Virus record (IMG/VR): IMGVR_UViG_2695420914_000005
Reading direction: 5' to 3' (one strand)
Source of the DNA: a virus
Taxonomy: Duplodnaviria; Heunggongvirae; Uroviricota; Caudoviricetes
DNA length: 64,000 nt
Positions 12,901-18,900 of this stretch are shown piece by piece (the stretch's first letter is position 1; each line of letters starts with the position of its first letter). The position numbers were made by a program.

Positions 12901-15900
12901 AGACAGCGCCACAGCGTCCAATTTTCACCACAGACGACCCAACACACTACCAACAAAAACACACGCTCAAAATCGCTCCCGTTGCGTTACACAACCATAT
13001 AAACAACTTATTTTCAGGCATAACAAAACAACTAAATAACACACATGCCATTCCCAAAAACAACCAACCTCTTTATGGCAGGCTACCGAAAAGACCCACC
13101 TCTTCTCCCCAGGCTACCGGACAACCAACCTAACTTTCACAGGCAATCCGAAAACATTCATACGCGCGATACCCACGACACGCCATTCCCCAAATAGCGA
13201 AGCACACCAGAATCACTGAAACCCCCAACGAAGTCTGTAACCGCAAGGTTTCTCTCAATCCCAAAGGACACGAAACAGAACAATCACGGGAAACGCCATT
13301 ACCCAATACACGAATAACTACAAAAGCCTTTCACACACTCCAGACAAACAACTCAAACACAATAACGAAAGGAATCGCCCACCTGCCATTACTCCATACA
13401 CGGAGAAGAACAATCACCAAAACGACGAGAACACCCCATAGAAGAACCACCGCAAAACGAACGAAACCACATACACCGACAGAGAAAACAACACACCCAA
13501 TTCACCAACAGAAATAGTCGCCGTATAGAACATTCTGGAAGGAGTGAGCATTAACGCCTATAGAGAGGTTGAGACAGATAAAACACAACATGTATAGCGA
13601 AGAAGCCAGGTATGTATAAGTGGGGAGGGAAGGAGGGGTGTCGCCTCCTTTTTCGTATTTATTCAACTCCTGATTTTATCCCCCCGTAACACCCCTACGG
13701 TCAGCCTTCGGTCCATACAGGGAAAAGGTTGCATCCCGCTACAGAAACGGCTGGGTTGCCTTCGGGGAACGGCTGGAGGTTTTCAGGGAAACGGTCGAGT
13801 TGCCTGTGTGGATTTCGGGAAAAGGCTCGATGCCGGTTCAGGAACGGTGGCGTACCGGTATAGCGAGAGGGAGAGTTGCGGCTACCCACCTGTAATGTGC
13901 GGGAAGAAGAGAGGCGCTCACGTAGGCGGACTCGCTTACCGCTGGATTCCCTCTGAATGCCCAGCTACAGCGTAATTGTGCCAGACAGCCAACGGGTCAC
14001 AATCGATTTCAGTAGGTTTTTGGGGAGAGGATTACTCTGCCACCAGCCACTTTCGGCCACTAAATCAGAATAATGTAAAAAGTGTACTCGGTACTGAACC
14101 TGAAAACTCACTGCCAAAACCACATTCACCGGAATAAAATCCTTTTCCGCCTTTGTCTTATTGCGATAATAACACCAACAAGTAAACAACATGTTTAGAC
14201 GTTATATAAACGAAGTGAGGATGAAGAGATGATTAAGATGCCTGTGACGGTTGAGGTGTGGGGCGTGGATTCCCTGGCTGAGTGTCTGGATGCAGTGGGG
14301 CCGGAGTTGTACCGCAAGTTGTGGTCGTTCGTCCCGGCAGAAGGGGAATCGCCCAAAGGGAAGGATATCTGGCACCTGCTGAGTGAAGATGAAAAGCGGG
14401 AGCTGGTGGACGCGGTACACAGCGAGTTCCCGGGCGACGAAGATTAAGAGTGAGGCCACCAGCACGGTGGCTTTTGTCGCTATTAACCTCCGGGCAGCGC
14501 AGCACCGTAACGATATACTTTGTGGCCGTTTTCTTACTGGTATTATTTACGCAATTCAGAAAACAACATGTTTAAGGATTGCGTTATGTTTGCAAATATC
14601 GACATCAACCAAATCAAGAAAATGACTCAAAAAGAGTTTGACCAGTTTTATGAGTTAGAAGGTTGGTCTTCCACGCTGATCAATTCAAGATGGGTGCTGG
14701 AACTGATGACTCGTGATGACGCACCTGCTTTGATGATTTGCGACATGGGTGAAGATGCTGACTTTATGGATATGAGCGAATTTTGTGTGGACACATACAA
14801 CCGCAGCCAGAAGTACTACTTCACATGCGATAGCGAGAATGACGTTATTTCTAAGGTCTATCTTCACCTCGTCCAGCATTGGGACGTTCAGGAGTTTCTT
14901 GAAGTATTCGAGTAACCCCAACCAAAGCCAGCATTGCTGGCTTAATTTCTCTATAGCCGCAGGGAAGAACCTGCATACCGCTCATGCACCTGATCAATAT
15001 GCTTTGTAGCCGTTTTCTTACTGGTATTATTTACGCCATTGAGAAAACAAGTTGTTTACGGAGTTGTAATGAAAAAATCATTGGTTCTTGGTCTGGACAA
15101 AGACCAGAAGAGAAAAGAGAAGCCTGCGCTGGTTGCTCAATTAACTTTGCTGGACATCGTTGCCAATGGGACCTCTATTCGTCTGTTCCGTGAAACAGCG
15201 GTGTCTTTCGATAAAAACACCTTTACTCGTTATGTAATGAATGTTCGTCGCCAGCGTGGAAAAGGCTGGGTGGCATTTCAAAGAATGTGGCCGGAACATC
15301 AGCTCGAACTGGCTTTGATGGAAGTTAACCGCGTGGCCCAGCAAGAGATTCAGAGAGCATCAGTGATGGCAATAGCCTGATAATGTGCAAGTGGCAATTA
15401 GTCGACAGTACGACAGCCCCGCCATCCTTACGGGGCTTTTTTGTATTGTAAGTACATACTTACGATCATAGAATATAAAAATAATCAAAACACTACGGAG
15501 AGTGAAATGACCGTTAAACGCGAAAAACTGACAGTTGATGTTTACTATGCCTCTGAAACCGCCGAAGGTAAGAATGTGGCAAAAATCACCGTTGTTACGT
15601 ACAACACCGAAACTGGTGCCGAAGTCCAGGCCAGTACGATCGTGCGTAAAGGTGATGCCTCCGGCGGCGAGTACGCGACTCAATACCAGTCCATTCTCGA
15701 TGCAACTGACCCGCTGCTGCTGAAAATCGAGAACTACTTCCGCCAGGTTGATGAAGAGGTGTTTGAAACCATGATGAATATGGTTAACACCGTATTCGCC
15801 TCCAGCCTGAATACCAACACTACCTGGATTGGTCAGTACGGCCTGCGCATTACCTCTGGCATTCCTGCCGACACCTTAATCCCTGAAAGCGTATTCGCTT

Positions 15901-18900
15901 AATCCTCTTTAAATGGCGCGTAAACCGCGCCATTTTATTAAGCCCGATAACAATTTGTTTTCTGCCTTATCTGATTTGTGAAAATGATTTCACTGAAGCA
16001 ACTTAATAAGGAAACCATCATGGGACTTGATATCTATATCGAGACACAGCCTAAAAACGATCTGAATAACGAGGCATCCAGAAAGCAGGTTGCTTACTTC
16101 CGTAAGTTCAATGCGCTCGTTGGGTGGATGGAGCGCAACGTAGGTGAAGTCGAAAATTGTGAGCTTTTAGAATTAACGATGAATGACATTTGTTTTCTGA
16201 AGGCTCATTTGATGCACATAAACGAAAGTAATTGCGAAGAGTACTTGCCTACCCGGGAAGGTTTTTTCTTCGGCAGTCAGGAGTACGATGAAGGTTACTG
16301 GCATGATGTGGGGCAGTTGAAAGAGCTTGTGGAAGATCTGATTAAGAACCACGACTTTCACAATAACAGACTGACCTTCTGCGCCTGGTGGTAAATATGG
16401 GCGATTTCAAGAAACGCCTGAAGGAAAGAGCCGAGATGGTCAGAAAGCAAAACGCCTCTTCTGTCATCAGATACGCAAGGCAGTTTAGTCGCAACAACAA
16501 ATCAGTTGAGGAAAAGATCCTTAGCGTAATCGGTCGATAATTATTAAGGCCATCAGCATTGATGGCCTTAAATGACCATCCTGTTTCCCGCAGGCTAAAA
16601 ACACCAACCTCTTACCTCCAGGCAACCGACAAACCCACCTGTTCCCGTCCGGCTACCGTAACTTTCCACTTTGACGCCTTATTCGTACAACGATAATTAA
16701 CACCAACAAGAAAACAATTTGTTATTTACGATAAGGAATTAATCATGAATTTTATCGCTACTGTAAACGCACCCGCACATGGCAATATCGCTGTAACGTT
16801 TTCTGACATTGAAAAACGAGTACTTGGTGCATGGCGCGACAATGAGACGGTAGAACTGTCAGCACAAGAAAAATGCAATATTGCACGCGACATCATTGGC
16901 AATCGTCGTTACTCGCGGGTATTTGAGAAAGCGTATGTGGTAAATTCTGGATTCGGAACGTTCGTCTTTCCGGTGCGCTCCGGGCGATTCTGCCAGTCCA
17001 AGCTGATTGAGTTCGCTACGCAGATTTCTGTCTGGATTAAAACTCAATCGTCGTTCAAATTTTCCGACGATGAAGCAGTATCGCAGGGGATGCGAATCGC
17101 CAACAATGCAATTAAATGCAAAAATATTACGTATACCGCTGGCGTTGACACATGGAAACTGTTTTGCGCTAACTTTATGCTGAATGTATACGCAAGCAAC
17201 CGCATCCACATCCTTGATGGCGTGTAACTGAGAAGAGGGCCAGAAACGGCCCTTTCTCTATAGCCACCAGCTGCCGCAGGGAAATTTTCAGAAACGGCGA
17301 GGAACGTATTCATGAGCCGACGGGGAACGACCAGGATTTTTTCGGGAAACGGCTGCATTCGCCTTTGTGTAGAAAAAACATCGGGAAGCTGGTGGAATCC
17401 AACCAGCGGTTGTCGGACAGGTGAGCGAGGAAAATTATGATGACTTTCGTCACCTGAGACATCCAGATTTCTTTCGTAGCATAATCACATACGTGATTAA
17501 GTGGTGTGATTATGTGAAAAATCACGCGCACATAATACGCGAGCGGATACAGAACAAAACAAAATGCCGATCCGCACCGACAAATAAACGCGGATCACAT
17601 AGCAAGACTAAAAGCCAATGATTAACCATACTCTATAGCGCAATATAACGCGTTTTAAGCGCGTTAATGTGTTAAGTAATGGGCATGTACTGGTAAGGAT
17701 ATAAAAGCGCGTCTATGGCGTTATTTTGGCGCTTATTTTTATGTTGTTGGAGTGAGTTAAAGACAATAAAAACGCGCCATCATTGGCGCGTTATGGTAGG
17801 TGTATTGGAAACGAAAAAAGCGCCCATAGTGGGCGCTCGATTTTATTTGTGTAAACTGATTTTAAATCCCATTTCTACAAACGCTTTTAACATTAAAAAT
17901 ATATCAGCGTCGTTCACGTCTGCTTTTTTTCGCTCCTGGTCGCTCAATAAGTCAATTTTGCGCGTCGTTTCATCTATAAGCTCGACTGCGCGCCCAGCGT
18001 AACCAGCGATCCCAGCGATGCGATTAACATAATATTCATTATGGACGTTAACGCCAGCGATAAGAACAAACATGATTAAGCTCCTTAAAAAAAATTAAAT
18101 AGAATTTTGAAGTTTTCCGATTAATGCGCTTAAACGTAAGTATTCACGTTTGCGCTTGCAATCTCGCTTGCTGTTAAGCAAATCAGAAAACGTAAAATTT
18201 AATTGGTCGCGTTGCGCGATCAAATCATCGATTAATTCTAGTTTATAAGCGCGATACTTTGCGCGATACTTTGCGCGGATCTTGTCATAGCTGACCATTT
18301 TTAAAGCTCCTTTAAAGCGCCCACTATGGGCGCTTGATTCCATTAATTACGCTTTAAAAGCATCAGCTAAATAATTGTAGAAATCATTCTTGATAAAGCG
18401 ATATTGCTGTGTACCAGCTTTTGCGCTTCCCATTCCTTTGACTTTCTCAACAAGTCCAAGACGTTCGCAAAGATTGATCAACTGGTTGGCTTGAGTATAG
18501 CCAGCGTCCAATTTAATTTCACACGCTTTTTTAGCTTCATTCATTAAATCGAAAACAGCACCATTGGTGAACGTGTCGATCTCGTCGTTAATCATATCGA
18601 TTAAAGCGAATACACGAGATCCAGACATATCAGCGATGGAATAAACGCATTTACCAGATTTAATGGATTTAACCAGATAAACCAGTTTTTCCAGTGAATA
18701 ACTATTAGTCATTGCATCACGGAAAAATACTTCTGGCGCTTGTTTGCTTGCTTTAATTGCATAGTAGAAAACAGAGCATAATTTTTCGTCTTCTACTGCG
18801 TTTACGACGTTGTTGATGAAGTAAGCAAGTTTCGTGGTCGCAGCTTGCATATTTGCTTTGTCTGCTTTAGTGTGCGTACCATTTTTATAATGTTCGTTGT

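Follow-up and report, generated by a model that had tools for sequence, protein, structure and literature searches.

The 64,000-nucleotide stretch analysed here (the window), taken from the Caudoviricetes virus record IMGVR_UViG_2695420914_000005, carries two arrays of a shared repeat, GGGAAACGG, spaced every 22 bp, which are real and related to one another and which bracket a cluster of small genes. The arrays look like docking sites for a conserved DNA-binding protein of the phage-plasmid to which they belong, separate from its RepA replicon. Our preferred reading, which draws on sequence comparison and to which we give a probability of roughly 0.35, is that they form the split centromere of a type Ib partition system encoded elsewhere in the window (Table 1), comprising a ParF-like ParA and a small ParB whose sequence resembles that of ribbon-helix-helix (RHH) proteins. 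We infer that this ParB-like protein, rather than a winged-helix neighbour of the arrays, would be the binder and that the function served would be partition. The arrays are among the most conserved non-coding sequences of the SSU5 family, with the same 9–10-bp core from Escherichia to Moellerella. Literature searches on SSU5 or pHCM2 iterons, on their origins and on the motif returned nothing relevant, and we found no annotation that mentions the arrays. The motif, the depth of its conservation and its placement are new, while phased protein-binding repeat arrays as a kind are well known.

The 5-kb region around the arrays is 100% identical to the Escherichia coli plasmid pERB3f3 (NZ_MW590712.1, 110,850 bp) and 94–98% identical to the Escherichia phages CMS-2020a, PhiR41_1 and Cyrano, with weaker matches to Klebsiella phages and to Salmonella phage SSU5. 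From these matches it follows that the window is part of an SSU5/pHCM2-type phage-plasmid, in this case one carrying CTX-M-15. A window position x corresponds to position 87530 - x of the pERB3f3 record.

In array 1, which is 58% GC, the motif RGRAAMGG occurs at 13721, 13743, 13765, 13787, 13818 and 13840 on the G-rich + strand. The window as a whole shows no enrichment of the motif (19 matches, with 15.3 expected after shuffling), and the probability of finding six same-strand copies within 127 bp is about 1e-10. Array 2 opens with the terminator hairpin of the last small gene, gene 7 (hairpin at 17237–17252), whose loop holds AGAAACGG; 3' of the hairpin there follow, in order, CAGGGAAATTTT, CAGAAACGG, GGAACGT, CGGGGAACGA, TTTTCGGGAAACGGC and CGGGAAGCTGG. 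Full cores lie at 17242 (in the terminator loop), 17290 and 17345, and partial cores at 17279 (GGGAAAT), 17301 (GGAACGT), 17323 (GGGAACG) and 17383 (GGGAAGC), giving sub-periods of 10–11 and 22 bp around the same core as in array 1, at lower regularity. A model built on sequence only, from array 1 of five relatives, matches array 2 in the window (E 5.6e-5) and nothing further in the whole 110.8-kb plasmid; the informative portion of the repeat unit is about CRGGGAAACGGC(YGG). An earlier reading of the window, the sequence-only reading, had described both arrays as 21–23-bp imperfect direct repeats. Both indeed exist, and the spacing of array 1 is mostly 22 bp, although array 2 is less regular than that description implied. 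Terminator-like hairpins at the ends of rightward transcription units directly precede both arrays, and neither array has a promoter-like site before it or a terminator after it. A conserved reverse copy of Chi (GCTGGTGG) at 17264–17271 lies beside array 2. Chi is frequent throughout the 64-kb window, with 10 copies on the + strand and 5 on the - strand where roughly 1 per strand would be expected by chance, and its orientation differs in Moellerella, so we rejected it as a feature specific to array 2.

Over 50 loci, the array-1 model recovered array 1 in 44 matches and array 2 in every locus, always on the + strand and downstream of a gene-7 homologue. Lack of conservation of the repeats in relatives had been named as part of what would count against the sequence-only reading; the repeats are in fact conserved in 38 distinct relatives plus Moellerella. 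The 38 distinct array-1 sequences hold the spacing at 22, 22, 22, 31 and 22 bp, and in the Klebsiella clade, where a 9-bp deletion shortens the 31-bp interval to 22 bp, the retained cores stay 22 bp apart. Core columns are better conserved than spacer columns (0.84 vs 0.70; Mann-Whitney p = 4e-5), and spacer sequences have been replaced among relatives while the phasing was kept. Both syntenic sites still carry the motif in a divergent Klebsiella element, CP027615.1, with backbone proteins only 31–49% identical, and in pW18-2-b of Moellerella wisconsensis (Morganellaceae). The array-2 region is conserved too, including in Yersinia pestis pMT1, and array 1 is found in 718 plasmids of PLSDB. Among relatives the two arrays lie 1.3–3.5 kb apart in the same orientation.

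Since the period of two helical turns is strictly kept despite the turnover of the spacers, the arrays probably act as cis elements at the level of DNA. There is no conserved RNA structure in array 1: folding of either strand is no better than that of shuffled sequence (z +1.1 and +1.65), and RNAalifold on 26 relatives yields -2.55 kcal/mol, that is, essentially no consensus structure. A window-wide Rfam search at the gathering threshold was empty, and relaxing the limit to E 10 for 12.6–17.8 kb brought up no relevant family. For array 2, RNAalifold recovers the terminator plus one stem, which a GC-to-CG swap preserves in the Klebsiella clade, whereas a different clade breaks it. That swap is among the observations that speak for a very unlikely alternative, in which the arrays work as RNA, their GGA-rich read-through transcripts sequestering host CsrA, in the manner of CsrB or RsmZ, or the FljA-family protein encoded at 19593–20117. 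The density of GGA, about 1 per 20 nucleotides, is CsrB-like and includes several CAGGGA and CAGGA words, and all copies lie on the strand transcribed from the flanking genes. Besides the folding and Rfam results, however, the arrays have no dedicated promoter or terminator, and the conserved core reaches well past GGA. At the one syntenic open reading frame (ORF) compared in Moellerella, which keeps the arrays, there is no FljA-like gene. Similarity to the 5' untranslated region of E. coli fliC does not help this alternative either, as the alignment score is not above the window-wide background, and we rejected a kinship between the arrays and the fliC leader; a 12-mer common to both, TGAGCCGACGGG, is confined to the E. 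coli lineage. SSU5-like elements conserve the FljA-family gene itself, and this holds even for those from Klebsiella, which is non-flagellated.

The regular 22-bp spacing also recalls iterons, and the sequence-only reading had likened the layout to iteron-controlled origins and copy-control loci, a model that would make the arrays RepA-binding iterons of an origin or of an incA-like copy-control locus. The plasmid has an ordinary P1-type replicon elsewhere: its RepA (364 amino acids; record positions 1–1095, outside the window) is 43.5% identical to P1 RepA and 48% to SSU5 RepA, and has iterons on either side, at least 18 copies of GTATGCTGTCAGCGGT every 21 bp, in a P1-like oriR-repA-incA layout. 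In pHCM2, RepA is flanked by a different iteron, CTCTCTACAGTGGATAG, and the annotated P1 iterons read GATGTGTGCTGGAGGGAAA. The proposed comparison with pHCM2-type and P1 iterons went against kinship, the cores of the pERB3f3, pHCM2 and P1 iterons all being unrelated to the arrays. Different replicons again are present in CP027615.1 (rep_cluster_2469) and in the untyped Moellerella plasmid, both with the same GGGAAACGG arrays, which are thus unchanged across at least three Rep/iteron types in Enterobacteriaceae and Morganellaceae. Iterons bound by Rep change together with the Rep protein. Because the arrays stay the same while the Rep and iteron type changes, they are not RepA iterons, and the earlier model is barely credible. 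It can draw on the direct repeats about 22 bp apart, and on GGGAAA(A)CG and, in one unit, GCTGGAGG, which the arrays have in common with P1 incC iterons. On the other side, the cognate iterons sit at repA outside the window and the arrays lack TGTGCTGG, the core of the P1 iterons. There is no rep gene near 13.7 or 17.3 kb, no TTWTNCACA box in 12667–14228 and no AT-rich unwinding element beside the arrays, and the sequence reported as DnaA-box-like, TGTGGATTT (13807–13815), agrees with the consensus at only 7/9 positions; most relatives have another sequence in its place, and the Klebsiella clade has lost it by deletion. What stands of the iteron-like layout is its anatomy, namely repeats in direct orientation, about 22 bp long, whose core and helical phasing are conserved while the spacers vary, and not an iteron-controlled origin or copy-control locus. 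The observation that no RepA-sized initiator lies between the arrays was correct.

Two further repeats were seen in connection with the replicons. Only in the E. coli lineage, TCTCTATAGC(C) occurs after terminators at 14946–14958, 17253–17265 and 17626–17639, and on the - strand at 13555–13570. Its sequence is similar to the left half of pHCM2-type RepA iterons (CTCTCTATAGTGGATA), though the RepA of this plasmid uses another iteron. In Moellerella pW18-2-b, at about 6990–7090 (reverse strand) and right after array 2, lie about five copies of CTCATTTGAGA-like repeats, which are absent from the Enterobacteriaceae relatives and may be iterons of that plasmid's untyped replicon.

Given that parAB lacks adjacent repeats (none lie in its promoter region or downstream flank) and that the plasmid has no other arrays of the motif, we propose the two arrays as the missing centromere. 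The ParA of this operon matches ParF in the PDB (E 1.2e-10). Its partner of 117 amino acids is 94% identical in pHCM2, vs 71–75% for the other backbone proteins compared, and has a disordered basic N-terminus followed by an extended segment and two helices, an RHH-like pattern from which an RHH fold may be predicted. The segments IKSRTxSxEDE(Y/F) and (T/S)RSDVxRAA of the partner are kept down to 45–48% overall identity, and the partner has an invariant IKSRTMSxEDE and FTRSDVIRAAI; a conserved, putatively DNA-reading segment in the ParB-like partner is thus matched by an unchanged DNA motif. The ParB-like gene occurs in 797 plasmids with the same genus breakdown as array 1, and none of the 55 Yersinia pMT1 records has either. 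A 62-kb plasmid-only derivative, from which all virion and morphogenesis genes have been lost, keeps RepA, parAB and both arrays, which fits the centromere model without proving it.

Mechanistically, each array would present its binding sites on one face of the helix, as 22 bp corresponds to about two turns and 31 bp to about three, with half-units of 11 bp. ParB dimers may coat the phased half-sites of each array cooperatively, and the two ParB-DNA complexes could then pair, with the accessory-gene cluster looped out between them. Such complexes would stimulate ParA and thereby drive segregation of the prophage plasmid.

Several observations weigh against a partition centromere. The arrays lie 40 kb from parAB, and type Ib centromeres usually abut or overlap the par promoter. 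In Yersinia pMT1, array 2 persists intact without the ParB-like gene, though too little time has passed since the divergence for decay to be visible. For the RHH fold of the partner, Foldseek with a monomer model gave no result, and neither Pfam nor the PDB a match. Array 1 is part of a far larger conserved non-coding block, which a simple centromere leaves unexplained, and the 30-bp repeat sets described below are also candidates for a centromere. Finally, the winged-helix protein of 216 amino acids is an equally good rival binder, being always found beside array 2 with its recognition helix kept.

The gene for this winged-helix protein adjoins array 2 in every relative examined, including pMT1 and Moellerella, and the recognition-helix residues (Y/F)TQxNQ are retained at 35% overall identity; structural neighbours of its winged-helix domain include TubR and AspA. 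It is possible, if on the whole doubtful, that the arrays are bound by this protein and act as a regulatory, boundary or silencing element, insulating or controlling the small-gene cluster and the convergent leftward operon, an idea that also accommodates the position of both arrays directly after the terminator-like hairpins of rightward units. Yet the arrays lie downstream of the gene's own operon and not at its promoter, no promoter overlaps them, and a winged-helix fold by itself is uninformative as to target sequence. Other candidate binders fared worse. Gene 7 (16745–17227) was rejected: the motif is unchanged in CP027615.1, where the gene is only 31% identical, and in Moellerella, where an unrelated ORF flanks array 2. 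The product of 57920–58993, an accessory protein put forward earlier as one to try against the repeats, is absent from CP027615.1, which keeps the arrays, and has no repeats nearby; its identity as a Rep protein was not supported by any test run here. The C-terminal 35 residues of this protein weakly match a designed beta-trefoil (5xg5, E 2e-4), and in the 62-kb Escherichia albertii plasmid an ORF matched by position alone is annotated at only 255 amino acids. Sequence searches of the small genes and candidate binders in Pfam, PHROGs and the PDB were uninformative, save for ParA and the FljA-like protein.

Upstream of array 1, the gap 12667–14228 is conserved in gene order and sequence in pHCM2 (Salmonella Typhi), Klebsiella, Enterobacter and other E. 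coli elements, and the layout of the block is also found in the relative L087, in CP027615.1 and in Moellerella. Between 12800 and 13550 its composition is 39–41% A, 32–33% C, 13% G and 13–16% T (GC skew about -0.5, AT skew +0.4 to +0.66). In this stretch, whose conservation reaches from E. coli to Moellerella, there are four to five degenerate copies of GCCATTAC(C)CAATACACGGAGAAGAAC; no ORF or Rfam family accounts for the stretch. The block also contains the first of two sets of 30–31-bp direct repeats of the form ACCnACCTCTT-N7-8-CAGGCTACCG. An array of GGGAAACGG follows about 660 bp downstream of each set, so that the order of 30-bp repeats followed by a G-rich array occurs twice. Within the block and well beyond it, copies of an operator-like palindrome, (G)AAAACAAnnTTGTTT(TC), are found shortly after promoter-like -10 boxes, ahead of the small genes, parA, the helicase operon and a putative small terminase gene. 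Together they resemble the operators of a single global repressor.

These features bear on a further alternative, which we consider improbable: that the arrays function in cis as parts of a second origin, one of phage (lytic) type, with array 1 and the promoter/A+C-rich block as the origin and array 2 as a distal enhancer. The element encodes a DnaB-like helicase, a primase, DnaE and RNase H and should therefore have a Rep-independent origin. Two clusters of one repeat at the distance and orientation given above, and about 1.2 kb of deeply conserved non-coding sequence in which conserved promoters read into a strand-skewed stretch, would suit such a role. Against it, no initiator was identified, neither an AT-rich unwinding element nor a conserved DnaA box lies beside the arrays, the replication genes are 40 kb off and without copies of the motif, and the plasmid-only derivative, which is unable to make virions, keeps both arrays. 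In a more specific form, on which we would place similarly little weight, the tandem promoters, three 30-bp repeats, 0.5-kb stretch of 74% A+C and G-rich array of the block would make up, together with array 2, a previously undescribed transcription-activated origin or switch for lytic replication, with array 2 as its distant partner and the accessory genes looped out in between; another option is that the A+C-rich part is itself a long non-coding RNA with a separate function.

All seven small ORFs reported between the arrays are present. They are hypothetical in RefSeq and fall only into PHROGs families of unknown function, and relatives have as few as one and as many as seven genes between the arrays. 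A promoter/5'-leader cassette of about 77 bp recurs ahead of several of these genes, at 14502–14578, 14986–15062 and 16653–16729, the first two copies being 86% identical, and recombination between such cassettes may drive gain and loss of genes in the cluster. Farther away, within the tail-fibre gene, a 120-bp tandem repeat of 2.2–2.5 copies (74–76% matches) occupies 50576–50882.

Table 1 Features of the phage-plasmid window, in window coordinates
Feature	Position	Strand	Basis or remarks
Array 1	13716–13865	+	Six units; core (C)RGGGAAAMGG(CTGG); spacing 22, 22, 22, 31, 22 bp
Array 2	17237–17400	+	Repeat stretch proper 17278–17400, with a further copy inside the loop of the gene-7 terminator
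Conserved non-coding block upstream of array 1	12667–13715	+	Alignment across four genera
Promoter-like sequences	12780–12801; 12855–12883		Second is TTGACG-17-TTATAC; within the non-coding block
Operator-like palindrome	13000–13015		Within the non-coding block
A+C-rich stretch	13020–13520		Within the non-coding block
Three 30-bp repeats, set 1	13057–13153		Within the non-coding block
Hairpin followed by T run	13630–13650		Within the non-coding block
Three 30-bp repeats, set 2	16569–16662	+	Just upstream of the gene-7 promoter (16671–16697)
Palindrome (G)AAAACAAnnTTGTTT(TC)	2532, 7572, 11510, 11561, 13000, 14184, 14561, 15045, 15946, 16709, 26081, 56784, 60020		
Seven small genes	14229–17227	+	Most with their own copy of the repeated promoter/operator cassette
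Winged-helix protein, 216 aa	18347–18997	-	C-terminal winged-helix domain; candidate binder
FljA-family protein, 174 aa	19593–20117	-	Pfam PF03614 (repressor of phase-1 flagellin), E 1.5e-84; weak Hfq-like C-terminal match
Type Ib partition operon	56832–57859	+	ParF-like ParA 56832–57500; 117-aa partner 57506–57859
357-aa protein	57920–58993	-	Between parAB and the helicase operon; 75% identical in pHCM2
blaCTX-M-15	115–990		Mapping to pERB3f3 annotation; ISEcp1 just beyond the window edge
apbC	8134–9234		Mapping to pERB3f3 annotation
metG (methionyl-tRNA synthetase)	9392–11425		Mapping to pERB3f3 annotation

Phage-plasmids of the SSU5/pHCM2/pMT1 type are common in clinical Enterobacterales and are carriers of resistance genes; the queries used here matched between 718 (array 1) and 797 (ParB-like gene) plasmids of PLSDB. 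To our knowledge, the inheritance of SSU5-type phage-plasmids and their switching between plasmid and phage lifestyles are almost unstudied. If the arrays are a centromere, they would offer a direct handle for curing or incompatibility strategies and would join N15 as the second case of a phage-plasmid whose centromere lies far from its par genes. Should they instead be part of a lytic origin or switch, they would be an entry point to that biology.

Set beside known systems, the arrays resemble the RepA iterons of P1, F and IncFIB plasmids (oriR-incC, incA) in being direct repeats of about 21–22 bp with a conserved core, arranged as two arrays that flank genes, but they are not located beside repA, do not have the sequence of the cognate iterons and lack TGTGCTGG, a DnaA box and an AT-rich region. 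They differ from sponge RNAs of the CsrB/RsmZ type in having no family match, no GGA in conserved hairpin loops and no promoter or terminator of their own. In the satellite phage P4, the initiator bridges ori and crr, which lie 4.5 kb apart and have their repeats in common; there too, two clusters of one short repeat lie a few kilobases apart, and both P4 clusters act in cis, whereas the P4 repeats are octamers bound by the alpha primase-helicase, an initiator with no identified counterpart here. The TubR/tubC and AspA complexes show winged-helix proteins coating direct-repeat arrays, and the 216-amino-acid protein has a similar domain, although this element has no TubZ and no ParA gene beside the winged-helix gene.

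For the centromere reading that we prefer, the closest parallels are the type Ib systems. At parH of TP228, an array of short repeats is bound by the RHH protein ParG, the partner of ParF, and par2 of pB171 has two centromere arrays, parC1 and parC2. The present arrays share with these centromeres the short direct repeats on one helical face, and the element likewise encodes a ParF-like Walker ATPase with a small partner of RHH-like sequence pattern; as in pB171, there are two separate arrays. Unlike in these systems, the arrays are remote from the par operon and bracket unrelated accessory genes, and the par promoter carries the general operator palindrome of the element. A precedent for such remoteness is the phage-plasmid N15, in which centromere sites are dispersed far from the sop operon. 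N15, with sopAB and scattered sopC-like sites, is alike in placing phage-plasmid centromere sites far from the partition operon and inside other functional regions, but it is a type Ia system, and its sites are single inverted repeats rather than phased arrays of direct repeats.

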